64,000 nt of DNA. It comes from Candidatus Moraniibacteriota bacterium (lineage in GTDB: Bacteria; Patescibacteriota; Minisyncoccia; Moranbacterales; UBA9337). The position numbers and the translations under genes were made by a program. Location of the stretch: contig JBAQFQ010000010.1 in the NCBI GenBank assembly GCA_049287345.1, positions 7,795-71,794 on the forward strand. The letters are read 5' to 3'. Within the stretch, counting starts at the first letter, position 1, and every line of letters starts with the position of its first letter. This document shows positions 4,871 through 51,538 of this stretch, piece after piece. The notes under the pieces were generated by a model that was given only the letters and a program-made list of their open reading frames with translations, ran no database searches and had not been told where the DNA came from.

Positions 4871-4897
4871 TCGTAGAAACAGGGCACTGCCCTGCTC
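4871..4897. repeat. Conserved hairpin element tcgtagaaaCAGGGCactGCCCTGctc (GGCACTGCC apex) immediately after the elp3 stop
   Basis: 7-bp stem with 3-nt loop. Near-identical copy at 16873-16900 after the prfA stop. No U-tract. Confidence 0.7.
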
Positions 4898-4974
4898 TCC
4901 AGCTAACAAAAAATGTCAAAATTCCAATTTCAAATACCAAATAAATTTTAAATTTCTAAATGACTAAATAAAAG

Positions 4975-5095
4975 ACTGTCATTGCGAGGAGGTACTCCGA
5001 CGTGGCAATCTCCTTTATTGCACTCAAAGCTCGCGATTTGTCATTTCGACTAAATAAATTTCTGTACTCGGAAATTTACGCATGGAGAAATCTCA
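4975..5095. repeat. Compound intergenic GTCAT-type repeat region (TGTCATTGCGAGG... and TGTCATTTCGACT...)
   Basis: 5037-5095 shares both ends (tgtcatttcgact..ataaatttc.gtactcg.aaat ... gaaatctcaaa) with 55198-55290. Confidence 0.7.
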
Positions 5096-5189
5096 AATAC
5101 TTATAATAAAAAATAACAAATCTACAAAAACCATTATGCCGCATCTCCGCGATAGCAGAAATGCAAAACAATGATAAAGATAAAATTTA

Positions 5190-5231
5190 AAACCACCGAA
5201 AAGCGCTGCTCCGCTCTCGGTGGGTTTTTTA
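5190..5231. terminator. Bidirectional rho-independent terminator
   Basis: Stem ACCACCGA...TCGGTGG with an A-run upstream and a T-run downstream. Sits after the stop of the minus-strand 5242..6276 gene. Confidence 0.7.
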
Positions 5232-5241
5232 GAAACTATTT

Positions 5242-6276
5242 CTATTTTTGTTGAGATACATGGGGACGCATTAACATGCACTGCAATTGAGTATTTATCA
5301 TTGCAGCCACAATTTTCATACGACACTGTTCATTGTGATTCTTGAAGTTGCCATCGATAGAATCAATGGAGGACCATGAAGGTAGCGAATTTCTTACCGA
5401 CAAAACGAGCGCCAAATCCTGAGCATCTTTAAATTTATATTCAAGACCTTGGAAGTTTTGCACATTTCCCGCTCTCCAAATTCTAACATCATTGGAGTAA
5501 TAATCGGCGCTTCTAATGTTGGTCTTATCCAAGTTTTCTCCGTGTGTTATGCGAGCATAAACAGGTATTCCGCAATAATCACCAACACGGAATTCTTTCC
5601 GACCGCTTTCTTTGTAGGCACCAATAATTCCATCAGTCACTTCACCTTTTCCATTAATAGTAATATCTGGCAATGATATTTTTAGCTGATCAATCATGTG
5701 AGAAAAATCAATTATTTGATCATTGCTGTTACTTTCACATCTGCCCGAAAGAGGTATCCAAGATGATATAGATTCCATGAAAAGTTGAGGGAGAAGCATG
5801 CTATCCAGATTAGCTCTCATGGATTCTATGGCAAACATCCCGCTTTTATGTTCACCCTCTAGTTTTATCCCGAGACTATCTCCAATTTTCATAATATTGA
5901 AGACTGATTTATTGGCGGACACTTCAAATGTTGCTCTATCTTTTTTTAAAACAATTATGGAAAAGATATCACTCTTTGAAATATCGCCCGATATCGAGCT
6001 CAACTTCCACAAAAAATCATCCTCATCTTTTACCCCACCCTTCTCTTTCCGCATATATTTAAACCATTCTACTAAATACTTCGCGGTAAATATCGTTAGA
6101 GTAATTTCAAAATCACTCCTTCTTTCTCCCTCACTTTTCCGACTATCGCCTAAGAAAAAATTAGGAATATAGAAAGGGTACCTTCTCTCTGCCGTAGCTT
6201 TAAAACCAACCCTGGCGAACGTTGAATCTAGAGAGAAAAAATTTGGCTCTTTTGATAATAATTCAGATTTGTTCAT
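5242..6276 (-). CDS. Hypothetical protein (344 aa), no recognisable family
   Basis: Long ORF; ATG at 6276 preceded by GGAGG. The track start at 6366 is upstream and is not the ATG. Somewhat higher GC than its neighbours. Confidence 0.6.
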   Translation of the reverse strand: MNKSELLSKEPNFFSLDSTFARVGFKATAERRYPFYIPNFFLGDSRKSEGERRSDFEITLTIFTAKYLVEWFKYMRKEKGGVKDEDDFLWKLSSISGDISKSDIFSIIVLKKDRATFEVSANKSVFNIMKIGDSLGIKLEGEHKSGMFAIESMRANLDSMLLPQLFMESISSWIPLSGRCESNSNDQIIDFSHMIDQLKISLPDITINGKGEVTDGIIGAYKESGRKEFRVGDYCGIPVYARITHGENLDKTNIRSADYYSNDVRIWRAGNVQNFQGLEYKFKDAQDLALVLSVRNSLPSWSSIDSIDGNFKNHNEQCRMKIVAAMINTQLQCMLMRPHVSQQK

Positions 6277-6559
6277 GGTAACCTCCAAATAAAAAGAACT
6301 TGTTTTTGATAGCTCGTAAGCTATTCCGCCAGACGTATCCGGCAGGACAAAGCAGGGATATCCCACCTTACCTCTTGATGTACATTAATATATGCACCAT
6401 AAGCTAGGCATGATATTTGATTATTAAATTTATACCCGAAGACACTAAAAGTCAAATAAAATCTAGCTAAATTAGATTAGTTTATGTTAAAATATAATTA
6501 ATAAGGTAATCTATCATCAGCAATCAAACATTAACTAAATAAAAATTAATCTCAACTCT

Positions 6560-6958
6560 ATGCAAAAAATAATCATTGCCTCCGGGCCGGTTATCATCGA
6601 GGATAACAAAATATTATTAGATATATCAGGAGATGACAATTTCTGGAAATTTTGCGGAGGAAAAATGAAAGATCTAGAAAACCTTCGAGAAACCGCAACT
6701 AGGAGAGCTCAGGAGGAACTAGGAATCAAAATTGAAATTTTAGATGAAAATCCTTTCCTACTCTACACTATCAAAGAAGCTCCCGAGGGCAATATTGATG
6801 TCGTCTTAGTTCATTATTTAGCTAAAAGAATTGGGAAGATAGTTCCTGGTGAAGATATTCAAGAGTGGAAATGGATTGCCATCGAAAATCTAAAAAACGA
6901 AAATCTCGCCCCTAATATAATGCCGACATTGACTCATTTTAATTTTATAAAAAAATAA
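6560..6958 (+). CDS. NUDIX hydrolase
   Basis: Nudix box GGKMKDLENLRETATRRAQEELGI. Confidence 0.8.
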   Translation: MQKIIIASGPVIIEDNKILLDISGDDNFWKFCGGKMKDLENLRETATRRAQEELGIKIEILDENPFLLYTIKEAPEGNIDVVLVHYLAKRIGKIVPGEDIQEWKWIAIENLKNENLAPNIMPTLTHFNFIKK

Positions 6959-6992
6959 TCTTCCAAAAAAATCAACTTCAGAAGACATAAAT

Positions 6993-7028
6993 AAAACACT
7001 TCAATATATCGATATATTGAAGTGTTTT
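6993..7028. terminator. Perfect 36-nt palindrome (16-bp AT-rich stem) downstream of the NUDIX gene; terminator or operator
   Basis: aaaacacttcaatatatcgatatattgaagtgtttt is its own reverse complement. Confidence 0.5.
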
Positions 7029-7334
7029 AAATTTAATTATTAAATATTGAATGAGAATTGAGTATTGGATATTGGAAATTAAAGTATAAATTAAGGATAA
7101 CATCTCCAGAGAAACCCACTCTTTCTATCACTTAACGGATACTGTCGAAAAATAACGCTTATTATTTTTCTTGCCATAAACCCCCTATTCTGCTAAACTA
7201 ATGGTAACTTGTTCGTGCATCTTTTCGTTTAACTAATAAATAAGTTTAGTACGCGGTCGAAACAAGATAGTAAAATACAATCAATTGATTATTCGTAAAT
7301 AATATTTATAAATAATCAAAGAAAATTTAGTATT

Positions 7335-7628
7335 ATGGCAAAGAAATTATATGTAGGAAATCTTCCTTATTCTCTAAAAGATGGGGACCTAAATCAACTT
7401 TTTACTCAAGCTGGAGCTGTTGAGTCTGCTACTATCATCAATGATAAAGCAACTGGAAGAAGCAAAGGTTTTGGTTTTGTTGAAATGTCTGCTGATGATG
7501 AGGCTCAAAAAGCTATCGAAATGTTTGATGGTCAAGAGTTAGAAGGTAGAAAACTTACAGTCAACGAAGCTCGTCCAATGCAACCACGAGAAGACCGCGG
7601 TGGTTTCAGAGGGGGAAATAGATTCTAA
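7335..7628 (+). CDS. RRM-type RNA-binding protein
   Basis: RNP-2 LYVGNL, RNP-1 KGFGFVEM, Gly/Arg tail; long 5' UTR. Confidence 0.85.
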   Translation: MAKKLYVGNLPYSLKDGDLNQLFTQAGAVESATIINDKATGRSKGFGFVEMSADDEAQKAIEMFDGQELEGRKLTVNEARPMQPREDRGGFRGGNRF

Positions 7629-7636
7629 TTTATCAT

Positions 7637-7680
7637 GTCACTCAACCTGTCGTTCGCGAACGACAGGTCTCATGAGTGAC
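7637..7680 (+). terminator. Long hairpin terminator after the RRM gene
   Basis: GTCACTCAACCTGTCGTTCG / CGAACGACAGGTCTCATGAGTGAC followed by a T-rich tract. Confidence 0.7.
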
Positions 7681-7704
7681 TTGATTTATTTTAGAAACTT
7701 TTTA

Positions 7705-7738
7705 AAAAGCATCTCGCAAGAGATGCTTTTTTATTTGA
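7705..7738 (+). terminator. Second rho-independent terminator
   Basis: GCATCTC-gcaa-GAGATGC followed by TTTTTT. Confidence 0.75.
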
Positions 7739-7833
7739 CTAATTTTCAATTTTCATACTATCATAGCGATAGTTCTTGATAACCACACAGGTTGTGTATC
7801 TATCCATTATATTTAAAAAAGGAGAAATTTTCC

Positions 7834-8145
7834 ATGTCCAGAGGCTATAATATTGATCTCTCTAATACCCAGGGAATAATTATCGCCATGGGTGAGATTG
7901 AAGAATTTGTAAGAATTCTAAAGACCAACTTAATTCTAACCATGGTAGATGAGTTGATAGCTAGAGAACGCTTTGGTTTTAGTTTTAAAATAGTGAATAT
8001 TCAAGCACGGACAGCTATCGCTAACTTCAATTTAGAAAATTTTTTAACCCTTCTCAATAAAAGAATTTCTCTAGAGATGGCAATTGAAAGATCTAAAAAA
8101 AATCTCGATCTCCTTTCTTATCAGTTAATTTATTTAAGGAAGTAA
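7834..8145 (+). CDS. Hypothetical protein (103 aa)
   Basis: ATG at 7834 preceded by AGGAG; the upstream M of the track ORF lacks an SD. Confidence 0.5.
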   Translation: MSRGYNIDLSNTQGIIIAMGEIEEFVRILKTNLILTMVDELIARERFGFSFKIVNIQARTAIANFNLENFLTLLNKRISLEMAIERSKKNLDLLSYQLIYLRK

Positions 8146-8158
8146 GTTTGTTTCTCAT

Positions 8159-8192
8159 TCTCGGAGCTGCCAATGCAGACTCCGAGATTTTT
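8159..8192. terminator. Bidirectional terminator between convergent genes
   Basis: TCTCGGAG...CTCCGAGA 8-bp stem followed by TTTTT. Confidence 0.7.
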
Positions 8193-8592
8193 AATAAAAT
8201 ATATTTTCCAGATGTTTAATCTCCAAGATATCCGTCCCGCTAGTATCAAACAAGATACATATCGCATCAAATCGATAATTCTTATCCCAAAAATCATGCT
8301 CCTTAATGTAAATTTGAGCAATTTTTTGTAATTTATGTAGCTTATCCCTGGTAATATTCTCCTCCGGCAAAACAGTCTCCCCTATTTTGGCGACTCTGGA
8401 TTTAACCTCTACGAAAACAATTTCATCTTTAAATCTAGTCACAATGTCAATTTCTCCCAATCTTTTGCCCTTAGTGTTTTGATAGTTAAATTGAAGAATT
8501 TTGAATCCTTTTTTCTTTAGATATTTTCCTGCTATCTTTTCGCCAAGATTGCCTATGCTTTTAGTCTTGTTTTTATTTCTATTCCAGAACAT
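8191..8592 (-). CDS. yraN: YraN-family (UPF0102) endonuclease-like protein
   Basis: GEIDIV...VFVEVKSR pattern typical of the YraN family. Confidence 0.7.
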   Translation of the reverse strand: MFWNRNKNKTKSIGNLGEKIAGKYLKKKGFKILQFNYQNTKGKRLGEIDIVTRFKDEIVFVEVKSRVAKIGETVLPEENITRDKLHKLQKIAQIYIKEHDFWDKNYRFDAICILFDTSGTDILEIKHLENIFY

Positions 8593-8765
8593 AAAAAATA
8601 GATTTAAGATGAAAGATGTAAGATTTATGAATGAATTTTATAAATACCCAAAAAGATTTTTATCAAACACGCATTTATTGAGGCAACAAACCTTTAATTT
8701 AAATTAATTTGCTTAAAAGATTGATACTCTTATATCTTAAATCGTAAATCTTAAATCAAACAAAT

Positions 8766-9854
8766 CTACTTCTCCAATTCTCTTAATTCACTAATCAGCT
8801 CTTTTTCTCGACGGCTTATTTTTTTTGGCACGATTACTCTAATTTTTACTAAATGATGACCTCTATCATTTTCTCTCAAAAATGGCACGCCCAGATGACG
8901 AATTCTAAAAATCTCACCGTTTTGAGTACCGGCTGGGATTTTCATCGTCATTGGACCCTCGACTGTTTCAATCTCTATCTTGTCACCCAATGTAGCCTGA
9001 GCAAAAGAAATCCCCTCCTCTGAGACAATATTATTTTCCTCATCTCGATTAAATTTAGCGTGCTTTTTCACATGAACATTGATAAACAAATCACCGCTGG
9101 GAGCACCCTGTTTACCTGCCTCACCTTCACCTCTAAGAGAAATTGTTTGTCCATCACTTATTCCCGCAGGAATATCAATTGGAATCTTTTTCTCATTTTT
9201 ATAGATACCTTCTCCCTTGCAGTGACGACATTTTTGAGTGTAAATACTTCCCTGACCCTTACATTTATCACAAACTGCTTCTTGGGCAATAGTGCCTAAA
9301 ATTGTTCGAATTGATTTTCTTATTTTACCCGTGCCATGACAATCACTACAGGTTTCTTTTTTTGAGCCTCTCTCGCCCCCCTCTCCGCCGCAATGATCGC
9401 AAACTACATTTTTATACAAACTAATTTCTTTTCTAGTTCCTGTTACCATTTCAAAAAAACTTATTTCAATATCTACCTGAATATCCCTACCCACCTCCTG
9501 ATGATAACCACTTCTCCCACCACCAAAAATATCAGAAAAAACATCTTCCCAACCACTGGCACCAGAAAATCCACCAAATCCACCCTGCCCAAAACCAGAA
9601 AACCCCTCAAACCCACCAGAAAACCCACCCCCTCCAGCTCCTGAGCCGTTAAAAGTTTGACCGAATTGATCATATTGCGATCGCTTAGCTTTATCTGATA
9701 AAACCTGATAAGCCTCGTTAATTTCCTTGAACTTATCTTCATTACCGCCAGCTTTGTCGGGATGATGTTGATGTGCCAGCTTACGATAAGCTTTTTTAAT
9801 CTCGTCTTCAGAGGCACCTTTTTCCACTCCTAATATTTTATAATAATCAGCCAT
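8766..9854 (-). CDS. dnaJ: Molecular chaperone DnaJ
   Basis: J-domain with HPD, G/F-rich region, four CxxCxGxG zinc-finger repeats, C-terminal domains. Confidence 0.95.
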
Positions 9855-9909
9855 ACAATTAAGTTTAAAATCTATTTTTACTTTAATAATTTAGCATAAA
9901 ATAAAAAAA

Positions 9910-9936
9910 TTAGCAATCATCAAGAGTGAGTGCTAA
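9910..9936. promoter_or_regulatory. CIRCE operator (HrcA site) upstream of dnaJ
   Basis: TTAGCAATC-N9-GAGTGCTAA versus consensus TTAGCACTC-N9-GAGTGCTAA. A TTAGCA-17-TATATT promoter-like sequence overlaps on the minus strand (about 9937-9968). Confidence 0.7.
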
Positions 9937-9964
9937 AATATAAATTCACTACTAAATACTGCTA

Positions 9965-10068
9965 AAAGGTATTAGCCCCGGAGCAAGCCCTGGAATCTAC
10001 TTTCAGCAAGCTGCGGAGAATTTACTCAAAACGAGCTCGTCTACCGAAGCCTGGGCGTAAGTAGACTA
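9965..10068. repeat. About 100-nt conserved intergenic element, copy 1 (candidate ncRNA or REP-like element)
   Basis: About 85 percent identical to 12306-12411; contains the perfect palindrome ACGAGCTCGT and GCAAGC..GCAAGCTGC. Partial third copy at 22308-22378. Confidence 0.7.
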
Positions 10069-10692
10069 AATATTTCCTCGATTAATTAACGGCACAAAGG
10101 TAAAACCCGGGTACTCCTCTTCATAAAAATCATTTTCTCCTCTTTTTTCTAAATAATGGAGATAATTATAGACTGGTATAACCATCTTGCCACCTATTCT
10201 TAACTGATCCTTGAGCTCCTGAGGAACCTCTGTCGCTGAAGCGGACACTAAAATTCTATCATAAGGAGCCCTAGCAGCGTAACCCAGACTTCCATCCATA
10301 TTATAAAACTCTGCCACCTCCTTATTAATTTTTTTAATTTTACGTAAATTTTTTCTCCCCAAATCACACAATTCTTTAACTCTCTCAATGGACATAACTT
10401 TACCCTTTTCTCCAACGATATAAGCCAACAGGGCCGTGGTCCATCCAGAGCCACTACCAATATCCAGGATTTTTTGATTTTCCTGCGGATCAAGTAATTC
10501 CAACATGATTGCCACGGTGGTAGGCTGAGAAATTAGCTGCCCATAACCAATTGGCAAAGGAATATCAGCACCGGCACTTAATTCTAAATCTGAAGTAACA
10601 AAATCAACCCTATCAACATTAGCAAAGGATTCTATAATATGACTAGATCTCAAATAGCCATCTCGCATTAAATCATTGGTTAATCTATTCAT
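10066..10692 (-). CDS. pcm: Protein-L-isoaspartate O-methyltransferase
   Basis: DIGSGSGW motif I, LISQP; ATG at 10692 (the track start at 10698 is TTG). Confidence 0.85.
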   Translation of the reverse strand: MNRLTNDLMRDGYLRSSHIIESFANVDRVDFVTSDLELSAGADIPLPIGYGQLISQPTTVAIMLELLDPQENQKILDIGSGSGWTTALLAYIVGEKGKVMSIERVKELCDLGRKNLRKIKKINKEVAEFYNMDGSLGYAARAPYDRILVSASATEVPQELKDQLRIGGKMVIPVYNYLHYLEKRGENDFYEEEYPGFTFVPLINRGNI

Positions 10693-10720
10693 GTCCAAAA
10701 ATAAAAAAACTAAAAATAAA

Positions 10721-11164
10721 TCAAATTCCCATCACCTGCACAATCACATCTCGCTTACGCCCTCCATCAAATTCAATTACAAAAATATTTTGCCTATCAC
10801 CCAACATGATATTTCCCTTAGCTATTGGCACTACTTCGCTAGTCCCCAATAAAATAGACTTTGCATGTGAATGTCCATTACTGCGACCATCTGAGCGAAC
10901 AGCGGTGTTTCTAAGTTCAAATAAATCATGTGAATATTGATCCTCCACTGGCACCAATCGATATAAGACTCGCATAAAATCTTGCATTAGCATAGCCTCA
11001 TTATGATTAATAGCTAATCCCATAGTAGTATGTGGACAAAAAATTGTCACTTGCCCATCGCGAATACCTGAATTAGTTATTATCTCTCGAACCTTATCAG
11101 TAATATCCATAAACTCAATTTGAGTTCTACTTTCTAAGTCTATTTTTACGTTGTGTATTTTCAT
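10721..11164 (-). CDS. YjbQ/UPF0047 family protein (secondary thiamine-phosphate synthase-like)
   Basis: GHSHAKSILLGTS...IEFDGGRKR matches the UPF0047 signature. Confidence 0.75.
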   Translation of the reverse strand: MKIHNVKIDLESRTQIEFMDITDKVREIITNSGIRDGQVTIFCPHTTMGLAINHNEAMLMQDFMRVLYRLVPVEDQYSHDLFELRNTAVRSDGRSNGHSHAKSILLGTSEVVPIAKGNIMLGDRQNIFVIEFDGGRKRDVIVQVMGI

Positions 11165-11168
11165 ATTT

Positions 11169-12263
11169 TTATTTAGTTAAATTAGTTAAACTATCTTGCA
11201 AAGATTTAGCGGCCACTTCTGGTTGAATCATGGAGATTTCAATACCTGTCTCCAATTCAAAACCTGCCCAAGTCGAAGTGTGTGGCAAAATTTCAATATG
11301 CCAATGATAACGACGGTAATCTTTTCCGTCACAAGGTGAAGTGTGAATATAAAAATTATAAGGAGGATTGTTAACGGTGTGCTTGATAGCTAGCATAGCA
11401 TCTTTAAAAACCGCCGCCAATTTGATTTTTTCTTCGTCAGTAATTCTTTCAAAATAAGGATTATGTTTTTTGGGCATTATCCAAATTTCAAAAGCACTCC
11501 GACTAGCAAAAGGACAAAAAGCTATAAAGCTATCATTTTCAGAAATAACTCTTTTTTTGTGCTGACTCTCATATTCGAGCATTTCACAGTAGACACATTT
11601 TCGTAAACTTTTAAAATACAATTCCGCCCCGTCTATTTCCTGCTTAATATAAGGAGAAATCACGGGTATCGCCATCAGCTGTGAATGCGGATGAGAAATA
11701 GATGCTCCGGCTTCCTTACCAAAGTTGTGAAAAATTGTTATATAATTAACACTCTTTTTCCTCATTAATTCTAAATATCTATCTTGAAATGCATCAAAAA
11801 CTTCGGCTATTTCAAAAATATCCAAATCGGGCAGATGTTTAAAATGATCCTTAGTTACAATTACCTCATGATAACCTGTACCAGTCATAGCAAAATATGG
11901 ACCTTCCTCTAAAGAACGAGGAACTTTACCTCGAGAAAAAGCTGGGTATTTATTAGGAAAAACTCTTAACGTCCAATCCCCATTACTCTTAGAATAAATT
12001 AACACGTCTTTCTCCTGATTGGTTTTAGCTGGATCACAAAACAAACACGAGTCGATATCAGCTTCATCGATTAGTTTATGAGTACTATATTCCATCTTGG
12101 AGAAATCCTCTGGTCGCTTAGCTCGACCCACCGCAATAACCACCCAATCACCCGTAACGATATCCTGCCTTAATTCTGATTGAGCTAATTGCTTATTTTC
12201 GTCCAAAACAGCTTTATTTTTTTCGACTTTTTTTTCCCCTTCTTGGGAAATGTTTATTTGCAT
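11169..12263 (-). CDS. Galactose-1-phosphate uridylyltransferase-family (HIT-like) protein
   Basis: HPHSQ histidine triad-like motif, CLFC zinc motif, duplicated half-barrel organisation. Confidence 0.65.
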   Translation of the reverse strand: MQINISQEGEKKVEKNKAVLDENKQLAQSELRQDIVTGDWVVIAVGRAKRPEDFSKMEYSTHKLIDEADIDSCLFCDPAKTNQEKDVLIYSKSNGDWTLRVFPNKYPAFSRGKVPRSLEEGPYFAMTGTGYHEVIVTKDHFKHLPDLDIFEIAEVFDAFQDRYLELMRKKSVNYITIFHNFGKEAGASISHPHSQLMAIPVISPYIKQEIDGAELYFKSLRKCVYCEMLEYESQHKKRVISENDSFIAFCPFASRSAFEIWIMPKKHNPYFERITDEEKIKLAAVFKDAMLAIKHTVNNPPYNFYIHTSPCDGKDYRRYHWHIEILPHTSTWAGFELETGIEISMIQPEVAAKSLQDSLTNLTK

Positions 12264-12305
12264 TTTTATTTTTTTGTTTATCCCCGATTAAATATTTTAA
12301 TTACA

Positions 12306-12411: not shown

Positions 12412-12418
12412 TTGGTTT

Positions 12419-14364: not shown

Positions 14365-14369
14365 TAAAT

Positions 14370-16819: not shown

Positions 16820-16872
16820 ATATTCAATATTAAAATACTGAACAAATTGCAAACCCGCTCCCACATAGCATT

Positions 16873-16900
16873 ACTCGTAGGAACAGGGCACTGCCCTGTT
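16873..16900. repeat. Conserved hairpin element ctcgtaggaaCAGGGCactGCCCTGttc, second copy of the 4871-4897 element
   Basis: 27-nt identity with the copy after elp3. Confidence 0.7.
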
Positions 16901-16940
16901 CGATAAAAAACATTACCCTGTTCTCTATTTTTCCAATTTT

Positions 16941-16978
16941 AAAACCCCAAGCAGATTGTTCCCTGCCTGGGGTTTTAT
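16941..16978. terminator. Bidirectional terminator (serves the minus-strand 16989..17822 gene)
   Basis: CCCCAAGCAG...CTGCCTGGGG stem followed by TTTTATT. Confidence 0.7.
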
Positions 16979-16988
16979 TCTTCCTCAC

Positions 16989-17822
16989 TTAGACAGAATC
17001 ATTCAAGCTCTTATCAGGAAATAATTCCAGAGCCTTCTTAATTCTTGTCTTTCTCCTTTCAAACACAAATCCTTCGCCCGTTCTACTGCAACCATACCTT
17101 TTCTCGATAAATGGCGAATTCACAGCATCTCGAAGTTGAGTTGCGGCTTCTTTCCAGTCGGTAATATATTTCCTCAAAGCTTTGAGCTCAGCTTCATGAT
17201 CTTCAATGAGCCTGCATTTTTCTTCTTTCCATCCATATTCATTGATTGTAGACAATTCAATTTCCTCATAAAGAACTGCCTTGTTTGCCTCTAACTGGCT
17301 ATTCACTTCTTGCAAATATTTAGCTTCCTGCTCCAGATGTGCACATCTTCCCTGGATATCAATTTGCTTCTGAGTTTCCTGGGCAGCTAACATCAATTCC
17401 TCAAGGTCAATGTGCCCGACAAGAAATTTACAGCAAGCATTCGCATCGCCGACGAAAAATACTCCGTCGCTAGCATTAGGATCAGTTGAAAAAAGTTTTC
17501 CTTGAGTTTTCATCTCGATATATCCATCGGGATTAATGATTCCCAATCGATCTCCAGAAGGAATCCAATTTCTCTGTGCGTCAAAAGAAATCTTATCTTC
17601 TTTCCATTGAAGATAAATAAATGTGTAGGAGCCGGCAATTTTTACCGCCAACAATTCATCTCTTTCGTTGGAAAAATTAACCACAAATGAACTTGATCCC
17701 TCTTCTCCGCCAAGCACATCTTCAACTGAACATCCCAAGAGCCTAATAACATAGTTGAATTTCCCGTCAATAAGAACAGTTTTTCCATTTATTGTAACTG
17801 CAATATTCTGACTCCATAACAT
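16989..17822 (-). CDS. Hypothetical protein (277 aa) with a coiled-coil C-terminal half, inserted between prfA and prmC
   Basis: ATG at 17822 with GGAGGTG 5 nt upstream; no recognisable family. Confidence 0.65.
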   Translation of the reverse strand: MLWSQNIAVTINGKTVLIDGKFNYVIRLLGCSVEDVLGGEEGSSSFVVNFSNERDELLAVKIAGSYTFIYLQWKEDKISFDAQRNWIPSGDRLGIINPDGYIEMKTQGKLFSTDPNASDGVFFVGDANACCKFLVGHIDLEELMLAAQETQKQIDIQGRCAHLEQEAKYLQEVNSQLEANKAVLYEEIELSTINEYGWKEEKCRLIEDHEAELKALRKYITDWKEAATQLRDAVNSPFIEKRYGCSRTGEGFVFERRKTRIKKALELFPDKSLNDSV

Positions 17823-18000
17823 AATTACACCTCCATGATGTTTAAATTTTCCGACCCATCGGCCGCGAAGAACAATCGACCCCAGGCAGACCTGGCGATC
17901 TAGAGCGTTTTTTTATTAATCCTCGCCCCTACTAGGATTTTCTGCTTAAGTGTGGTATAAAAATAGCACACTGTTCAGACTGATAATTTAAACATATTTT

Positions 18001-18897
18001 ATGAAAAATGTCAAGAATACAATTGAGGATATAAAATTAAAATATCTCGGAAAGTTAGATTCTCTTGATCTAGATCTTTTAATTTCTTTTGTATTAAAGA
18101 AAGAGCGGGAATTCATCCTCGCTCATCCAGAATACCTATTAACCAGTAAGCAGCAGTCAACAATCGATAAGGTGATGGCCAGACGCCTTAAAAATGAACC
18201 CCTTTCCTACATCCTGGGAGAGAAAGAGTTTTATGGCTTAAATTTCAAAGTTAATCAACACACCCTTATTCCCCGTCCAGAGACAGAATTGATGGTAGAA
18301 TTAGCATTGGAGGAAATACTCAAGGCTCAATATCCAATACTCAATACTATTGATATCGGTACTGGTAGTGGAAATATCATCATTTCACTTGCTCATCAAT
18401 TAAAAAATACTAGCTACCAGTTACCAGTTACTAATTACCTTGCTATCGATATTTCCAAAGAAGCTATCAAAATTGCCAAGCAAAACGCCAAATTTCATAA
18501 TCTGAATAAACAGATAAAATTCCTCCATGGAAACCTCTTGGAGCCCATCGTTAAATCTAAAATCATAAATCATAAATCTTCCCTGTTGATTCTGGCAAAT
18601 CTTCCCTATCTCTCCAAAGACATCTACAACGCTTGTGCTGAGAACGTTAAAAAATACGAACCCCGAACTGCGCTCTACTCAGCTACCTATGGTCTTGCTC
18701 ATTATGAAGAACTTTTGGGTCAAATAAAATTGCTAATCGATACTCACCAACAAGCTATTGTCCTGCTAATAGAAATAAGCCCTGAGCAAAAAAAATTATT
18801 GCCCCCGCTAATCAAAAAATACTTTCCCCAAGCACAATTAACATTCATAAAAGATTTGACTCAGCGCTGGAGATTTTGCAAAATAATTTTAAAATAA
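18001..18897 (+). CDS. prmC: Release factor glutamine N5-methyltransferase PrmC (HemK)
   Basis: IPRPETE, DIGTGSGNI, and NLPY variant of the NPPY motif; its position after prfA is conserved. Confidence 0.85.
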   Translation: MKNVKNTIEDIKLKYLGKLDSLDLDLLISFVLKKEREFILAHPEYLLTSKQQSTIDKVMARRLKNEPLSYILGEKEFYGLNFKVNQHTLIPRPETELMVELALEEILKAQYPILNTIDIGTGSGNIIISLAHQLKNTSYQLPVTNYLAIDISKEAIKIAKQNAKFHNLNKQIKFLHGNLLEPIVKSKIINHKSSLLILANLPYLSKDIYNACAENVKKYEPRTALYSATYGLAHYEELLGQIKLLIDTHQQAIVLLIEISPEQKKLLPPLIKKYFPQAQLTFIKDLTQRWRFCKIILK

Positions 18898-21096: not shown

Positions 21097-21128
21097 AAAA
21101 AACACCTCTATTATGGAGGTGTTTTTTA
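21097..21128. terminator. Bidirectional terminator after csp
   Basis: ACACCTC-tattatg-GAGGTGT followed by TTTTTT. Confidence 0.85.
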
Positions 21129-44208: not shown

Positions 44209-44250
44209 ATATTTACAAAAATTTTAAATTTTAAATTTCAAATTTTAAAC

Positions 44251-44892: not shown

Positions 44893-44995
44893 AAATATAT
44901 AATTCTCCAATCTCCACTAATTTTTCTCTAATTATCTCTAATGACTTCGTGATTATTAGTGAATAGATTCGAGGTTTGATTTGCGACTTAAATCA

Positions 44996-45826
44996 TTATT
45001 TCTTAATTCTTCTTTTTACAATAAATTTATTACTATATTTCTTCTTCTTTCTGGTCTTTTTCCCTAAGGCAATCTTTCCCCAAGGAGTCTTTGGATATTT
45101 CAATCCAACCCCTTGTTTTCCTTCTCCACCTCCATGTGGATGATCAACTGGATTCATAGCACTACCTCTAACAGCTGGGCGTTTACCTAACCAGCGTCCT
45201 CTTCCAGCTTTACCAATTTTTTCTACACCATGCTCGAAATTACTTACCTGACCAATCGTAGCATAACATTCACTATTAACTAATCTAATTTCGCCAGAAG
45301 ACATTTTCAATTGAGCTTTCTTACCATCTAGACCCATCAACAATACTCTCGCACCAGCACTTCTAGCCATTTGCCCACCTTTTCCAATAGTCAATTCTAT
45401 ATTACATAATGTTGTGCCTACTGGAATATTTTTCATCTGCATTCGGTTTCCATTATCAAAGCTAGCTATCGTATCAGCGACAATGGTTTTTCCAACCATC
45501 ATTCCCTCGGAAGCTATAATATATCTTTTTTCTCCGTCAGCATAAGATATCAAAGCTAGTAAAGCTGAACGATTAGGATCTTTTTCAATTGCAACAATTT
45601 TTCCCAATACACCCAATTTATCCTGCTTAAAATCAACGATTCGGTATTTTCTTTTATGTCCGCCTCCTTTATGACGTACAGATATTTTACCAGCTGATCT
45701 TCCTGATTTCTTACTCAAACCAACCAGCAAAGATTTCTCTGGTTTTTTCTTGGTAACGCCCTCAGGTTTTATCACGGACATATTTCTTCGTCCGGCTGCG
45801 TTTCTTTTGTAAACTTTGATTGCCAT
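44996..45826 (-). CDS. rplB: 50S ribosomal protein L2, in a non-canonical position between rplV and rpsC
   Basis: L2 signature including GGGEGKQG. Confidence 0.95.
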
Positions 45827-45914
45827 AATGATATAAATCTCTAATCTACACTAATTACTTTACTAATATTCTCTAATGTTATTCCATTTGCGACTACTTG
45901 CGCCCTATGTCAGA

Positions 45915-46463
45915 TTATACTGATTTTCTTTTAAACATTTTCTTACCCCAGCCCTTCTCACGACTTTCCTTTTTCTTGGCTTCTACTTTATAGTGAGCTC
46001 GCTTATTAGCTCCACCTATTGTCTTTTTAGTTTCTTTAACTTTTTCCACAGTCTCCTCACTGCCCTCAGTTTTGTCCACAGCTTCTACTTTCTTAACTGA
46101 TTTACTTTTCTTTGCAACTTTTCCAGTAACTGCTTCCCCTTCTAAGGTTATATAAACATGTGAACTTCTTTTTAATATCTCCGCCGCCCGTCCGTAAGCT
46201 CTTGGCATCCATCTCTTCATAGTGATTCCTTCTCCTACCTGAATATCAGAAATTACCAATGAATTCTTATCTAGATTGAAGTTATTTTGAGCATTATTAA
46301 CAGCACTCAATAACATTTTCTTTATAGGCTCATTAGATTTCTTTACAGTATTATCCAATCTAAAAATTGCTTCTTCAATTTTACAACCTCTAATAATATC
46401 AGCTGAAATTCTGACCTTTCTTGGTGATATTCTTAAATTCTTTAATTTTGCTTTAACCTTCAT
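45915..46463 (-). CDS. rplV: 50S ribosomal protein L22 with a Lys/Glu-rich C-terminal extension
   Basis: SPRKVR..ADIIRG, MKRWMPRAYGRA signature. Confidence 0.93.
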   Translation of the reverse strand: MKVKAKLKNLRISPRKVRISADIIRGCKIEEAIFRLDNTVKKSNEPIKKMLLSAVNNAQNNFNLDKNSLVISDIQVGEGITMKRWMPRAYGRAAEILKRSSHVYITLEGEAVTGKVAKKSKSVKKVEAVDKTEGSEETVEKVKETKKTIGGANKRAHYKVEAKKKESREKGWGKKMFKRKSV

Positions 46464-46501
46464 ATGCTATAAAATCTAATAAACTTTTATTATAAACCTC
46501 C

Positions 46502-46828
46502 TTAAGCTTTTTTAGCGGCCTTAGCTGCATCCATTTCCTTTTGTTTAGCAGCCTGCTCCAAATCTTTTTGAATCTTTCCTCCATGTCGGAAAAATGTCCG
46601 CGTAAAGGAAAATTCCCCTAGTTTATGACCTACCATTTCTTCCACTACATAAACATTTATAAATTTTCTCCCATTATAAACTCCAAAAGTATAGCCAACC
46701 ATCTCAGGAACAATAGTTGAAGATCTTGACCAGGTTTTGATCACATCCTTATCTCCAGCTTTCTTGTTCTTTATCTTATTTAATAGCTTTTCATCTATAT
46801 ATGGACCTTTTTTTAAACTTCTTGACAT
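46502..46828 (-). CDS. rpsS: 30S ribosomal protein S19
   Basis: SLKKGPYID...GHKLGEF signature. Confidence 0.95.
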
Positions 46829-46923
46829 ATTTTCTGGTAACTAGCAACTGGTGATCAGTAACTAGTAAATTTCCTATTTATACTATTAAAATTATTGAAT
46901 ATTTATTCGTAAATTCTCATAAA

Positions 46924-47361
46924 TTACTCGAAAACCTCAATCTTATCTCCTTTTTTCAATGTTACGATAGCTTTCCGAATAGCAGACTTTTTTCCAGTGT
47001 ATCTACCAAACTTTCTCACCTTTTGAGGAATATTAATGATATTTACTCCAGCTACTCTAACATTATATAATTTTTCCACCGCAACCTTTGCTTCTCGCTT
47101 GGTGGTCTTGGCTCTCAATCTAAAAATATATTTACTACTATTCATCAATTCCTGAGCTTTCTCGGTTATCCATGGTCGAACAATAAATTTATAGGCCATT
47201 TGTCCATCTCCAGCTGGTTGACTCTTCTCTTCTTTTAAATCAACCTTCTTGGTTGTTTTCTTGGAAACATTTTTTTTCTTAGTCACCAAAGCATCAGTCA
47301 TCTCAGCGACTGGCTTTTCCTCAATGTTTTCTTCTTCTTTTTTCTTATTAAATAAACCCAT
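46924..47361 (-). CDS. rplW: 50S ribosomal protein L23 with an N-terminal extension of about 55 aa
   Basis: Conserved L23 core in the C-terminal 90 aa. Confidence 0.88.
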   Translation of the reverse strand: MGLFNKKKEEENIEEKPVAEMTDALVTKKKNVSKKTTKKVDLKEEKSQPAGDGQMAYKFIVRPWITEKAQELMNSSKYIFRLRAKTTKREAKVAVEKLYNVRVAGVNIINIPQKVRKFGRYTGKKSAIRKAIVTLKKGDKIEVFE

Positions 47362-47372
47362 AAAAATAAATT

Positions 47373-47996
47373 CTAATTATACTTTTTTTCTAAATATGCG
47401 ATTGACTCTTCACTTATAACCAAACTCTTATAATTTAAAATATCCAAAACATTCAAATTATCAATTGGGGTACATTTTAAATTAGCAATATTCTTTGTGT
47501 ATAGGTAAGTCTCCTTTTCTCCTTGAGCTAAATTAATCAAAATAGATCCCTTTAATTTCAAAGCTTCCAATCCTTTAACAATATCCTTAGTTTTTTTGTT
47601 GGCTGCTTCAATTTTTTCCACCACAATCAATTTTTCACTGCGGATCTTTTCACTTAAAGCCATTAGGATTGCCTTGGCGTTAGCTTTTTTATTGATCTTC
47701 TTTTTGAAATTTCTATCCTTAGTTGGTCCAAAAACGATTCCGCCACCTCTCCAAATTGGACTTCTTACTGATCCCGCTCGCGCTCTACCAGTTCCTTTTT
47801 GTTTCCAAGGCTTTTTTCCACTACCGGCTACTTCACCTCTACCCTTAGTATGAGCAATGGCGACTCTTTGGTTAGCATCCATAGAAACATAAACCTCATG
47901 TAATAGCTCCTTATTCAAAGGAACATTAAAAACATTTTCAGATAATTCAATATCCTTAACTTTTTTGCCCTCAAAATTGTATACGTTAGTTTTCAT
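47373..47996 (-). CDS. rplD: 50S ribosomal protein L4
   Basis: L4 signature. ATG at 47996 (MKTNVYNF); the track start at 48014 is TTG. Confidence 0.9.
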   Translation of the reverse strand: MKTNVYNFEGKKVKDIELSENVFNVPLNKELLHEVYVSMDANQRVAIAHTKGRGEVAGSGKKPWKQKGTGRARAGSVRSPIWRGGGIVFGPTKDRNFKKKINKKANAKAILMALSEKIRSEKLIVVEKIEAANKKTKDIVKGLEALKLKGSILINLAQGEKETYLYTKNIANLKCTPIDNLNVLDILNYKSLVISEESIAYLEKKYN

Positions 47997-48044
47997 CTTT
48001 TTAATAATTCCCAATAATAAAACTTAGCAATTCACTTTTTTTAA

Positions 48045-48617
48045 TTAAACTAGGCAAATCTGAACCATTCTTCCTACTACTCCAGGCACAGCCCCCTTAA
48101 GTCCAATTAAATTCTTATCTTTATCAATATATACTACTTTCAAATTTTTAACACTAAAATTATTTCCACCCATTCTTCCAGCCATCTTCTTTCCCTTTAA
48201 TACATGTTCAGGAAAAGCGGAACCGATAGAACCTGGGGCCCGATGATCATGTCTGTGACCATGACTAGCTGGAGAACCAGCAAATCCATGTCTTTTTACC
48301 ACACCTTGATATCCCTTACCCTTGGTTGTCCCCCTAACTATAACTTTCTCATCTATCGCAAAAGTATCCACCAAAACTTCTTTTCCTACTTCAAAGCTAG
48401 CTTTATCAGATTCTTTAATTCTAAATTCTCGAGAGACACTCTTGTCTTTCTTATTCTTAAAGCTAAGACAAACAGCATTATAGCCATCTTTTTCCTCATT
48501 TTTCAAAGACTCTATCTTGTTGGGAGTACATTCAACTAAAGTAATGTTTAAAGCACCCTTCTCATTATCATAAATGGTTGTCATTCCCACTTTTTTTCCT
48601 AATATAAACTTTGCCAT
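48045..48617 (-). CDS. rplC: 50S ribosomal protein L3
   Basis: ATG at 48617 (MAKFILGKKVGMT). Confidence 0.93.
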   Translation of the reverse strand: MAKFILGKKVGMTTIYDNEKGALNITLVECTPNKIESLKNEEKDGYNAVCLSFKNKKDKSVSREFRIKESDKASFEVGKEVLVDTFAIDEKVIVRGTTKGKGYQGVVKRHGFAGSPASHGHRHDHRAPGSIGSAFPEHVLKGKKMAGRMGGNNFSVKNLKVVYIDKDKNLIGLKGAVPGVVGRMVQICLV

Positions 48618-48772
48618 CTTAATTTTCTTAAAATTCTTAAAATATTTTACCAAACAAAAAAACTGGTCTTCACGAGCCAGTAAAAACTAAATTTTTATTA
48701 GTTTTTAAATTTTCTGGCTAGTTGAGTATCTCACGTTTTATTAAATAACGCAAGACTTTAACTAGTTGTCTA

Positions 48773-49096
48773 TTACATTTTTACTTCAATATCTACTCCT
48801 GCAGGTAAATCCAAATTAGTCAAATCATCAATTGTCTTAGTCTTAGGATTCAAAATGTCAATCAATCGCTTGTGTACTCGCATCTCATATTGATCACGTG
48901 CATCTTTATGGACAAAAGTAGACTTATTTACAGTTACCTTATGAATCTCGGTAGGTAGTGGTACTGGACCAGCTATCTGAGCACCGGATCTTAGGGCTGT
49001 TTCTATAATCTTCTTAGCTGATTGATCTATGACCTTATTGTCATAAGCTTTAATCTTGATTCTAATTCTAGATTGTACTTCTTCTTTTTTATTCAT
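48773..49096 (-). CDS. rpsJ: 30S ribosomal protein S10
   Basis: ATG at 49096 ([15 protein letters not shown]). Confidence 0.93.
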
Positions 49097-49151
49097 TATA
49101 GTAATAAACTCTAACACTATTAATTTATTCCCTTTTTAAGAGAACTATTCC

Positions 49152-49178
49152 CCGTCCGTCCGCCGAGGCGGACGAGAC
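49152..49178 (-). promoter_or_regulatory. GC-rich hairpin in the tuf-rpsJ spacer (tuf terminator and/or S10-operon leader structure)
   Basis: TCCGTCCGCC-gag-GGCGGACGA stem, exceptionally GC-rich for this genome, without a clear U-tract. Confidence 0.45.
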
Positions 49179-49206
49179 AGGGTGAAGTTCACTCAAATAT
49201 ATGTAA

Positions 49207-50397
49207 TTATTTGATAATTTTTGTTGCAATACCAGCACCTACAGTTCTTCCACCTTCTCGAATTGCAAATCTCATTCCCTCTTCCATCGCTACATTAGAT
49301 GAAAGTTTGATTTTTAGATTTACAGTATCTCCAGGCATAACCATTTCAGTTCCTTCTGGAAGCTCTACTTCTCCAGTTACATCAGTAGTTCGAATATAGA
49401 ACTGAGGTTTGTAACCCTTGAAGAAAGGAGTATGTCTTCCACCTTCTTCTTTAGTAAGAACGTAGATTTCTCCTTCAAATTCGCTATGAGGAGTAATAGA
49501 TCCAGGAGCTGCCAAAACTTGACCTCTCTCTACATCTTCTTTCTTAGTTCCTCGAATAAGAATTCCAGCATTGTCTCCAGCTTGACCCTTATCTAATTGC
49601 TTATTAAACATCTCAATTCCAGTAACTGTTGTTTTTTGAGTGTCTCTTAAACCAATAATCTCTACTTCATCACCAATTTTTACTGTTCCTCTTTCGATTC
49701 TTCCAGTAATAACGGTTCCTCTACCTTCGATAGAGAAGATATCTTCGATTGGCATCAATAAAGGTTTTTCAGTATCTCTAACTGGTTCTGGAATTTTCTC
49801 ATCCAATGCAGCTAGTAAATCCCAAATTGGCTTAGCTTTTTCATCATCAGGATCAGTTACATTCAAAGCTTGAACAGCTGAACCACGAATAATTGCAGCA
49901 TTTTCACCATCGAATTGATATTTTGAAAGAAGCTCTCTAATTTCTTCCTCAACTAAGTCGATTAATTCAGGATCATCCACCATATCAATCTTGTTAACGA
50001 AAACAACGATATTGGAAACACCTACTTGATTAGCCAAAAGAATGTGCTCTCTAGTTTGTGGCATAGGACCGTCAGTAGCACTTACTACGATAATCGCTCC
50101 GTCCATTTGAGCAGCACCAGTAATCATGTTTTTGATATAGTCAGCATGACCAGGACAGTCAACATGAGCATAATGTCTTTTTTCTGATTCATATTCACAA
50201 TGAGCAGTAGCGATAGTAATACCTCGCTCTCTTTCCTCAGGAGCCTTATCGATTTCTGAGATATTTTTTGCTTTTGCCATTCCTTTTAGGCTTAGCACAT
50301 GTAAAATAGCCGCTGTTAAAGTGGTTTTACCATGGTCAACATGACCGATTGTTCCCACATTAACATGGGGTTTGGTTCTTTCAAATTTTTCTGCCAT
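49207..50397 (-). CDS. tuf: Elongation factor Tu
   Basis: [18 protein letters not shown]-motifs; 396 aa. Confidence 0.97.
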
Positions 50398-50537
50398 AAA
50401 ACTTTACGCTGCGAAAGAAAATCCACCTTCGCATTTTTTATATTTTATTAATTATTATTTTTTAAAAATAAATTCTTTTTCTTTGTAAAAAATAACGCAA
50501 CACAAAAATAACATTCCGCTTTTCTTTGTGATACCCA

Positions 50538-50568
50538 ATAATAATAGCACTCTTATTTTTTTTGTCAA
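50538..50568 (-). promoter_or_regulatory. Candidate tuf promoter TTGACA-N16/17-TATTAT (minus sense)
   Basis: The reverse complement of 50536-50568 reads ttgacaaaaaaaataagagtgctattat. A hairpin enclosing the AGGTGG Shine-Dalgarno sits just upstream of the ATG. Confidence 0.5.
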
Positions 50569-50774
50569 TAGGAAAGTCTCTACTAATTACGAATCTGTAC
50601 GAATATACAAAAAAAGTCACAAATTTCTTTATCTATAGGGCAAATGACCATTTTTTAATTCTCAATTTTCAATCAATCTTCAATGATTTAATATCCAGAA
50701 AATTCAATCCTCCACTTCTTAAAATAAATTAAATTTATCATTTCAAAAATACACCCAATTTTACATGGTCTTCC

Positions 50775-50803
50775 GTACAGACGAGGCACTGCCTCGTCTC
50801 TAC
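50775..50803. repeat. Hairpin element GTACAGACGAGGCactGCCTCGTCTCTAC, left boundary of the ORF6N insertion
   Basis: Inverted copy at 51513-51538; shares the GGCACTGCC apex with the 4871 and 16873 hairpins. Confidence 0.75.
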
Positions 50804-50806
50804 AAT

Positions 50807-51427
50807 CTATTTTTTCGCCTCCCTAAAACCTATTACTTTCAACTCTTTATCTTTGGGGTCAGTCATCATTAGTCTGTTGATAATTTTAAATATAATCTTG
50901 AAATTAGATTCATTTTTCTTTTCCATTTTTTCTATTTTATCACGTAGTTCTTTGTGAGTTGAAAGTATTTTTCTCATCCCAATAAACGCTCGCATTATTT
51001 GAATATTCACTTGGATAGCTCGATCGCTTTTAAGAACGCTCGAAAGCATAGCAATGCCTGGTTCGGTAAAAACGTATGGCAGATATTTTATATTTTGACC
51101 CCTGTTCAAGGTCACAATTTGTGACCTTGAAAATTTATCATTTCTTGAAGTCACAATTTGTGACCTTGAGTTTTCATCACTTGAGGTGCCAAATTGGAAC
51201 CCTGAGAAGATATCTGCTTCTTTTTTATTAAGCTGAAACATAAAATCTTCCGGAAATCTTTTTATGTTTCTTTTAACTGCTTGATTGAGAACTTTTGTTT
51301 CTACGCCATAAAGCAACGCAAGATCTTTATCAAATATTACCTTCTCACCTCTGATATAGTAAATCTTTCCGATAATTCTTTCATCAGGAATAATAACTAT
51401 TGATTTTTTGTTTTTAGCTTCGGACAT
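50807..51427 (-). CDS. ORF6N-domain (KilA-N-related) phage-associated DNA-binding protein, inserted between fusA and tuf
   Basis: LALLYGVETKVLNQAVKRNIKRFPEDFMFQL and RSQIVTS...LPYVFTEPGIAMLSSVLKSDRAIQVNIQIMRAF match the ORF6N family. Contains an in-frame 39-nt tandem duplication. Confidence 0.65.
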   Translation of the reverse strand: MSEAKNKKSIVIIPDERIIGKIYYIRGEKVIFDKDLALLYGVETKVLNQAVKRNIKRFPEDFMFQLNKKEADIFSGFQFGTSSDENSRSQIVTSRNDKFSRSQIVTLNRGQNIKYLPYVFTEPGIAMLSSVLKSDRAIQVNIQIMRAFIGMRKILSTHKELRDKIEKMEKKNESNFKIIFKIINRLMMTDPKDKELKVIGFREAKK

Positions 51428-51512
51428 TTTGTTTTATGAAGATTTTACTATGCCTTAATTTTATCACGAAATCACCCCATCATACAAACAAAAATTAAAA
51501 AATACCAATATC

Positions 51513-51538
51513 GAGACGAGGCAGTGCCTAGTCTGTAC
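51513..51538. repeat. Hairpin element, right boundary of the ORF6N insertion (inverted copy of 50775-50803)
   Basis: GAGACGAGGCagtGCCTAGTCTGTAC. Confidence 0.75.

Follow-up and report, generated by a model that had tools for sequence, protein, structure and literature searches.

Four hairpins in a Candidatus Moraniibacteriota genome are very probably GTAG-tagged REPs of the subclass 2.4 RAYT type

A 64,000-nucleotide stretch of the genome of a Candidatus Moraniibacteriota bacterium (GenBank assembly GCA_049287345.1, contig JBAQFQ010000010.1, positions 7,795 to 71,794), referred to here as the window, has a G+C content of about 35% and carries the str/S10/spc ribosomal-protein region on its minus strand. 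Four short hairpins are dispersed over these 64 kb, all of them intergenic. They are very probably GTAG-tagged repetitive extragenic palindromes (REPs) of the 'long' and 'double-foot' subclass 2.4 type of TnpA_REP, or REP-associated tyrosine transposase (RAYT; Bertels group 4), present as passengers spread by such an enzyme. Copy 1 lies 3 nt past the stop codon of an Elp3-like radical-SAM gene, copy 2 lies 58 nt past that of prfA, at the prfA-side edge of a lineage-specific insert of about 1.2 kb, and copy 3 lies 4 nt past that of an ORF6N gene. Copy 4 is found 7 nt past the fusA terminator, within a 62-nt block (about 51477-51538); it is inverted with respect to copy 3, 735 nt away, and the ORF6N gene is the one gene in between. 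Two orphan genes without a Pfam or NCBIfam match, encoding 374 and 277 amino acids (aa), are each convergent with a core gene (elp3 and prfA, respectively) and have a REP in the gap; the two proteins are unrelated to each other.

The window contains four matches to GGCACTGCC, where 0.11 would be expected, and none of 100 dinucleotide-preserving shuffles gave as many as four. In the window this sequence always forms the apex of a hairpin without a T-tract. A GTAG foot stands at a constant 6 nt 5' of the GGCA[C/G]TGCC apex on the appropriate strand, giving the extended pattern GTAGRRACRRGGCASTGCC; allowing up to three mismatches, this pattern matched the four hairpin sites only (six strand-readings, against 0.03 expected). 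The foot is an exact GTAG in copies 1, 2 and 3. Copy 3 carries GTAG on the minus strand and GTAC on the plus strand (GTAG...GTAC / GTAC...CTAC), and copy 4 departs from GTAGRRACRRGGCASTGCC by two mismatches on either strand, its foot having decayed (GTAC / ATCG). Hairpin energies were computed on single-stranded DNA (ssDNA) and compared with those of shuffles as z scores; copies 1 to 3 were far more stable than shuffles, and copy 4 alone was not significantly so (Table 1). GTAG is on the plus strand in copies 1 and 2 and on the minus strand in copy 3.

Table 1. Hairpins, terminators and genes of the window
Feature	Position	Strand	Description
REP copy 1	4873..4897	+	single-foot, GTAG-AAACAGGGC-ACT-GCCCTGCTC; fold -6.5 kcal/mol, z -3.3
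REP copy 2	16877..16901	+	single-foot, GTAG-GAACAGGGC-ACT-GCCCTGTTC; perfect 9-bp stem; -9.8 kcal/mol, z -5.2
REP copy 3	50775..50803	-	double-foot, 29-nt near-perfect palindrome, GTAGAGACGAGGCAGTGCCTCGTCTGTAC on minus strand; -12.1 kcal/mol, z -6.8
REP copy 4	51510..51538	unassigned (.)	decayed double-foot, GTACAGACTAGGCACTGCCTCGTCTCGAT on minus strand; -4.7 kcal/mol, z -1.8
Terminator after fusA	51546..51574	.	bidirectional intrinsic terminator, 13-bp stem, T-runs on both strands; context, not a REP
Other canonical terminator	7704-7731
Other canonical terminator	21097-21127
Elp3-like radical-SAM gene	3197-4870		upstream of copy 1
Orphan gene, 374 aa	5242-6366	-	on the far side of copy 1
Orphan gene, 277 aa	16989..17822	-	with copy 2, separates prfA from prmC
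prmC	18001-18897
tuf	49207-50397	-	str region, in the order S12, S7, fusA, ORF6N, tuf
ORF6N gene (PF10543)	50807..51427	-	between fusA and tuf; lineage-specific insert of the str operon; context, not a REP
fusA	51602-53734	-	str region

The loop is ACT/AGT in all four copies, and no T-run, as expected of an intrinsic terminator, follows any of them. A terminator scan of the window reported the terminator after fusA and none of the four hairpins, and the genome thus uses ordinary terminators that are distinct from the REPs. No further member of the family turned up when the window was searched generically for hairpins with a GT[AG]G foot. When the window was compared with Rfam 15 at the gathering score, five tRNAs passed and the hairpins had no match; at E values up to 10 nothing credible overlapped them. 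Identity as a CRISPR-like or tandem array was ruled out, the four copies being isolated. The preliminary description of the window had listed four hairpins at these places, with a 3-nt ACT/AGT loop and without the character of canonical terminators, and in all of this it was borne out. It had placed the shared part in the apex and stem and did not recognise the diagnostic 5' GTAG present in the sequence that it quoted.

Genomes of 185,579 species, one per species (596 Gb), were scanned with a 19-nt pattern in which the foot, 5' arm and apex were fixed and the 3' arm was left free. At least 120 loci in at least eight phylum-level groups were matched; the hosts and counts given for the family here and below are those among the matches listed. 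The hosts within the Candidate Phyla Radiation (CPR, or Patescibacteria) were Moran-, Falkow-, Magasanik-, Uhr-, Buchanan- and Wirthbacteria, Paceibacterota, Parcubacteria and Gracilibacteria. Others were Bacteroidota (Sabulibacter, Pinibacter, Emticicia, Arcicella, Adhaeribacter and others), filamentous Cyanobacteria (Microcoleus, Oscillatoria, Tychonema, Phormidium), and Anaerolineae (Chloroflexi), Brocadiaceae, Ignavibacteria, Omnitrophota, Armatimonadota and others. The family pattern had no match in 580 kb of unrelated control loci. Loci from a metagenome scan for EF-G (at most 64% identity, generic peptide patterns) were of no use for synteny and served as a negative control only.

The free 3' arm was Watson-Crick complementary to the 5' arm in 122-131 of 143 sites (85-92%) at each stem position, against shuffle means of 75-105 and a maximum of at most 114 in any shuffle. 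Stem pair 5-25 was complementary in 129 sites (shuffle mean 75), pair 6-24 in 128 (105), pair 9-21 in 129 (79) and pair 10-20 in 122 (78). These are the four positions at which the 5' arm varies (A or G); their 3' partners covary, that is, the changes are compensatory. Because the 3' arm pairs at every stem position, the similarity in this wide sample is not confined to the 6-nt apex; such confinement had been named in the preliminary description as grounds for refutation. About 10 sites have no 3' arm and are the chance matches expected in 596 Gb. Exact double-foot palindromes (GTAG...CTAC, exact on both strands) were present at 38 sites. The GTAG foot together with the hairpin identifies the family as one of GTAG-tagged REPs.

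Moranbacteria relatives have further double-foot GTAG palindromes at L126:3898-3926, L028:2470-2497 and L214:3656-3684. Their foot is unchanged (GTAGAGAC...GTCTCTAC or GTAGGGAC...) and their central sequences are quite different (GCCCCGACGGGGC, GCATTGCAATGC and AGGTTTAAAACCT); foot and outer stem are thus conserved and the apex is exchangeable. A contig end of Candidatus Falkowbacteria (L022:1-140) consists of a tandem array with a 51-nt unit and one REP per unit (GTAGAGACGAGGCAGTGCCTCGTTTC), a REP-derived minisatellite within a predicted open reading frame (ORF).

The 29-mer can be read through without a stop, in either direction, in two of its three frames, and in CPR loci copies are found in frame within four housekeeping genes as well as within RAYT genes themselves. 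The peptide encoded by the REP is NVETRHCLVS in KsgA/RsmA (L071), VETRQCLVP, as a representative of three copies, in a GH57 glucanotransferase (L035), RRNRALPC in DNA polymerase I (PolA; two copies, L106) and KRTGQCPVP in LepA (L070). These in-frame copies agree with the survey of Di Nocera, De Gregorio and Rocco (2013, PMC3733652), in which some copies were intragenic and the foot could donate a TAG stop codon. Ten-residue protein inserts of the 'VETRHCLVST' type and TAG stops supplied by a foot should be recognised as REP-derived in annotation.

At one locus (L119), the 349 nt between two hairpin copies encode what was identified as a Y1 HUH enzyme; used as a tblastn query, this protein had homologues in 8 of the 120 loci (L119, L080, L084, L053, L039, L068, L060 and L038), two of which are of CPR origin: L053, from a metagenome-assembled genome of Moraniibacteriota, and L038, from Parcubacteria. 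In all eight RAYT loci the same hairpin is present upstream of the gene, downstream of it and inside it, where it interrupts the gene in frame. One REP of the L053 locus, GTAGGAACAGGGCACTGCCCTGTTC, is identical letter for letter to copy 2 of the window and is of the same subtype. The window and 794 kb of control loci yielded no RAYT-like gene.

Alignment of the seven full-length RAYT genes revealed the motifs MPNHxHGI, WQxRF and YIxxN(P) in common, with L at the middle position in one of the seven proteins. The peptides VETRQCLVST and VGTGHCPV, encoded by internal REPs, fall between MPNHxHGI and WQxRF...YIxNNP. Pfam Y1_Tnp was matched by three RAYTs, and all three RAYTs scanned against the NCBIfam family NF047646, 'REP-associated tyrosine transposase', matched it with E values from 1e-14 to 4e-17. 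A profile of the seven sequences matched PDB entry 4ER8, 'TnpArep' (E. coli TnpA_REP; E = 6.8e-7); a search of PDB with the single L053 sequence gave no match, and the seven-sequence profile was needed. The RAYT genes that the same hairpin flanks and interrupts in other genomes, the same phylum included, and the GTAG tag bear out the suggestion in the preliminary description of a REP-like or protein-recognised element.

The TnpA_Y1 family has been divided into subclasses, of which 2.4 corresponds to the group 4 RAYTs of Bertels and is marked by the motifs NH[IFV]H, WQ and YIxNNP (Quentin, Siguier, Chandler and Fichant, 2018, PMC6006769). Its REPs, like those described here, have a 5' GTAG foot, a G+C-rich stem of 8-13 bp and a 3-nt loop, occur in both 'long' single-foot and 'double-foot' (GTAG...CTAC) forms, and are found inside the RAYT genes. 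Table S1 of Quentin et al. includes GTAGAGACAGGGCATTGCCCTGTCTCTAC (AFK02851.1) and GTAGGGGCAAGGCAGTGCCTTGCCC (AFY32102.1), and 25 of its entries start with GTAGAGAC. The hairpin strings were not found in the main texts of the papers, and the match is in this supplementary table only. Since the agreement with subclass 2.4 holds point by point and extends to the REPs of Table S1, the element is of a known kind. The hosts named for the subclass are Cyanobacteria, Bacteroidetes and 'various phyla'; the present host differs from that set in being a member of CPR (Moraniibacteriota) with a small genome, and in having no RAYT within 64 kb. No paper linking REPs or RAYTs to CPR/Patescibacteria was found in the literature.

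The superfamily of GTAG-tagged REPs is defined by GTAG plus a hairpin, and was reported from Proteobacteria, Cyanobacteria, Chloroflexi and the PVC group, and not from Bacteroidetes or CPR (Di Nocera et al., 2013). Like its members, the window copies are short palindromes tagged at one end by an unpaired GTAG, and they lie mostly 3' of ORFs, between convergent or co-directional genes. The copies in PolA, LepA and KsgA of CPR relatives recall those which the superfamily has within replication and repair genes; the copy number here, four in 64 kb, is low in comparison with that survey. The REPs and bacterial interspersed mosaic elements (BIMEs) of E. coli likewise combine a GTAG guide tetranucleotide with an imperfect palindrome, and their enzyme is the one matched by the RAYT profile. 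E. coli TnpA_REP, however, belongs to subclass 2.2, has a DHLH motif, and acts on longer, bulged stems present in hundreds of copies as BIMEs; the E. coli system has no double-foot form and no intragenic copies in the RAYT gene. The subterminal hairpins of IS200/IS605 elements resemble the present ones: they are recognised as ssDNA by a Y1 HUH enzyme, a short motif for guiding or cleavage adjoins the stem, and the target is not duplicated. They differ in that neither tnpA nor tnpB lies between the window hairpins and in that the RAYTs have a class 2 Y motif (Y---NP) rather than Y---Q.

By analogy with the biochemistry of E. coli TnpA_REP, the only RAYT for which binding and cleavage of an ssDNA hairpin are known, and with that of IS200/IS605, the following course may be proposed. 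The G+C-rich palindrome would fold on transiently single-stranded DNA, for example at a replication fork, into a hairpin of 9-13 bp with a 3-nt loop. A Y1 HUH transposase-like enzyme, the RAYT, would recognise this hairpin together with the GTAG at its foot, and by cutting and rejoining the strand it would allow copies to be gained, lost or exchanged without target-site duplications. Copies would persist where they do little harm, that is, after stop codons, in spacers that recent insertions have lengthened and, as in-frame inserts, in the surface loops of proteins. Where transcribed, they would form a stable 3' stem-loop and may secondarily protect or punctuate mRNAs. Activity of a RAYT in this genome, of which the 64 kb of the window show no such gene, is likewise presumed.

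Comparison with relatives places two of the REP loci at lineage-specific insertions. In two relatives whose PrfA is 82% identical and whose upstream synteny is the same (L217 and L218), prmC follows 7 nt after prfA, and in a third (L216) the gap is 133 nt and has no REP. The gap in the window (16820-18000, about 1.2 kb) holds copy 2, a terminator-like hairpin and the reverse-oriented 277-aa orphan gene, which is absent in all three relatives. The spacer between fusA and tuf (50398-51601 in the window, with ORF6N) is 196 nt long without a gene in L214 and L215 (EF-G 81% identical to that of the window) and 545 nt without a gene in L210 (91%); it contains an unrelated orphan gene of 122 or 133 aa in L211-L213 (91%) and another of 108 aa in L209 (94%). 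The window and L209-L215 have the terminator of fusA in common, as well as the promoter and leader of tuf, and differ in what lies between, so that the spacer is a hot spot and ORF6N a lineage-specific insertion. No REPs accompany the other small genes inserted in this spacer in close relatives.

In a further locus (L122), an ORF6N gene whose product is 80% identical to that of the window follows directly after the C-terminus of fusA and the terminator, and neither copy 3 nor copy 4 is present; a large beta-helix protein follows ORF6N there in place of tuf. The 62-nt block with copy 4 is absent from this orthologous fusA-ORF6N junction, which is therefore polymorphic for the presence of the REP. 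In the window, the block includes a promoter-like TTGGTA-18-TATGAT upstream of ORF6N and has the T-rich motif TTTTTGTTT at both edges. As ORF6N occupies the same site after fusA in L122 without REPs, the REPs are not the ends of the ORF6N insertion.

Homologues of ORF6N at 69-72% identity sit in unrelated neighbourhoods. In the four other ORF6N contexts with DNA, REPs on both sides were found in none, an upstream double-foot REP only in two, and no REP in two. The contexts of L123-125 are free of REPs, those of L126-128 have an upstream double-foot REP only, with a different apex (GTAGAGACGCCCCGACGGGGCGTCTCTAC), and that of L028 has two double-foot REPs upstream, again with a different apex. 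Of five distinct contexts, three (the window, L028 and L126-128) thus have a double-foot GTAG palindrome at a distance of 80-250 nt upstream of the gene. Of the 120 REP loci, only one includes an ORF6N gene; for this reason, and because its contexts mostly have no REP or one on a single side, ORF6N was rejected as partner of the hairpins. Within the ORF6N gene of the window, a core GTCACAAWTTGTGAC occurs twice (51105-51131 and 51150-51164), encoding SRSQIVT twice; its first copy extends to a perfect palindrome with 12-bp arms, and the duplicated palindrome is kept in the homologues of L028 and L126.

The preliminary description had the hairpins bound inserted genes. As a correlation this stands in part, with copy 2 at the edge of the prfA-prmC insert and copies 3 and 4 in the variable fusA-tuf spacer. 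As a mechanism it is not supported, given the REP-free ORF6N at the same site in L122, the REP-free genes in the spacers of relatives and the want of any other bracketed ORF6N. The REPs of this genome are very probably passengers at 3' gene ends and in variable spacers, and not the ends of ORF6N or of the orphan genes. In the simplest view, REPs settle wherever they find 3' gene ends and spare non-coding DNA, both supplied by recent insertions.

Several observations count against the view of the hairpins as RAYT-spread passengers. No RAYT was found in the 64-kb window by tblastn or profile search, and the scores against NF047646 (54-63 bits) are under its equivalog cut-off of 80. Only four copies were seen, in 64 kb, a stretch too short to be set against the more than 100 copies per genome of classic REPs, and copies with the window apex were absent from about 150 kb of Moranbacteria relatives, from which the family appears patchy. 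G.T and A.C mismatches in the stems were about equal in number, with no clear strand bias to point to the acting strand of the hairpin. The 'empty site' of copy 4 in L122 differs by 62 nt and not by a clean 29-nt element, and the event at copy 4 was therefore not a simple REP insertion.

A considerably less probable alternative is that the hairpins are chiefly RNA elements, U-tract-less terminators or exonuclease-blocking 3' stem-loops of elp3, prfA and ORF6N, kept by selection; this would be compatible with an origin as REPs. Copies 1 to 3 begin 3-58 nt past stop codons with GTAG on the strand of the upstream gene's sense, single-foot copies in the wider sample have the same sense as the upstream gene in 39 cases against 22 opposite, the flanking genes are convergent in 20 pairs against 9 divergent, and many REPs have been argued to be transcribed (Di Nocera et al., PMC3733652). 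The orientation bias is only mild, however, an asymmetry of G.U over A.C was not seen, copy 4 comes after a perfectly good terminator, and many copies stand upstream of genes or, in frame, within coding sequence. Rfam has no matching family, and the conserved unpaired GTAG foot and the linkage to RAYTs would be left unexplained. The same figures qualify the claim of the preliminary description that the hairpins mark gene ends, which holds loosely but not for the in-frame copies within genes.

There is a slim chance that REP pairs in CPR are active agents of gene flux and not passive colonists. A subclass 2.4 RAYT acting in trans would then use the REPs at the 3' ends of fusA, prfA and elp3 as entry or recombination sites for the exchange of small accessory genes (ORF6N, orphan ORFs), and this would explain why conserved operon junctions are variable hot spots.

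It is more doubtful still that copies 3 and 4 are the terminal inverted repeats of a composite, REPtron-like REP-ORF6N-REP element that moved into the fusA-tuf spacer as a unit. Such an element would fit the inverted arrangement around one gene that close relatives do not have there, the similar bracketing of RAYT genes and the differing neighbourhoods of ORF6N homologues. It is contradicted by the ORF6N of L122, free of REPs on both sides, and by the lack of REPs on both sides in every other ORF6N context; homology between ORF6N loci ends at the gene and its promoter and excludes the REPs, and the upstream REPs of L028 and L126 have different apices. About 200 nt more of non-conserved DNA lies between copy 3 and the tuf promoter. 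Neither a target-site duplication nor another bracketed ORF6N context, as expected of a miniature inverted-repeat transposable element or of terminal inverted repeats, was found for the ORF6N unit. Equally improbable is that the palindromes serve as operators of the DNA-binding protein of ORF6N/KilA-N type whose gene they enclose. In favour of this, the site is a palindrome as duplex DNA, and a GTAG double-foot palindrome recurs upstream of ORF6N in the three contexts above. Against it, those upstream palindromes are unlike in their central 13 nt (GAGGCACTGCCTC, GCATTGCAATGC and GCCCCGACGGGGC), none is present in L122 or L123-125, ORF6N is lacking near copies 1 and 2 and in 119 of the 120 REP loci, and the compensatory changes in the stem, like the in-frame copies within genes, suit a folded single strand and not a duplex operator.

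Some further features of the window were observed. Five tRNA genes (Met, Phe, Ile, Val and Leu) lie on the minus strand at 64-1239, with a spacer sequence repeated at 544-575 and 646-677. GC skew is negative throughout the window (1-64000) and the genes are mostly on the minus strand, which places the window inside one replichore. A perfect 38-nt AT-rich palindrome at 6992-7029 (TAAAACACTTCAATATATC and GATATATTGAAGTGTTTTA being its two halves), just 3' of a NUDIX gene, is unrelated to the REPs. A small hairpin directly upstream of the tuf start codon (50400-50430, minus strand; gcgaaggtggattttctttcgc) is kept in relatives; it was compared with L209, L210, L211/L212 and L214, and L211/L212 have apparently compensatory changes (gtgagagtggtttttctctcgc). 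It may be a structured tuf leader that encloses the ribosome-binding site.

At about 1 Mb, the genomes of CPR/Patescibacteria are commonly taken to contain few repeats and little mobile DNA. The presence in them of subclass 2.4 REP/RAYT systems, even in frame within housekeeping genes, is a modest new point; the kind of element, a GTAG REP, is already known, and Moraniibacteriota are a new host for it. An otherwise unexplained motif now has a name and a proposed mechanism, and the view of the hairpins as boundaries of inserted genes has been corrected. That one REP consensus is almost unchanged across very distant phyla suggests either horizontal spread of RAYT and REP or a tight constraint between enzyme and substrate, and there is a slim chance that the near-identity of the 29-nt element from Cyanobacteria to CPR reflects a recent spread of one REP/RAYT lineage between phyla. 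In this genome, two operons that are otherwise rigid have variable spacers (fusA-tuf and prfA-prmC) at which REPs are found, so that the REPs are handy markers of sites of genome plasticity.

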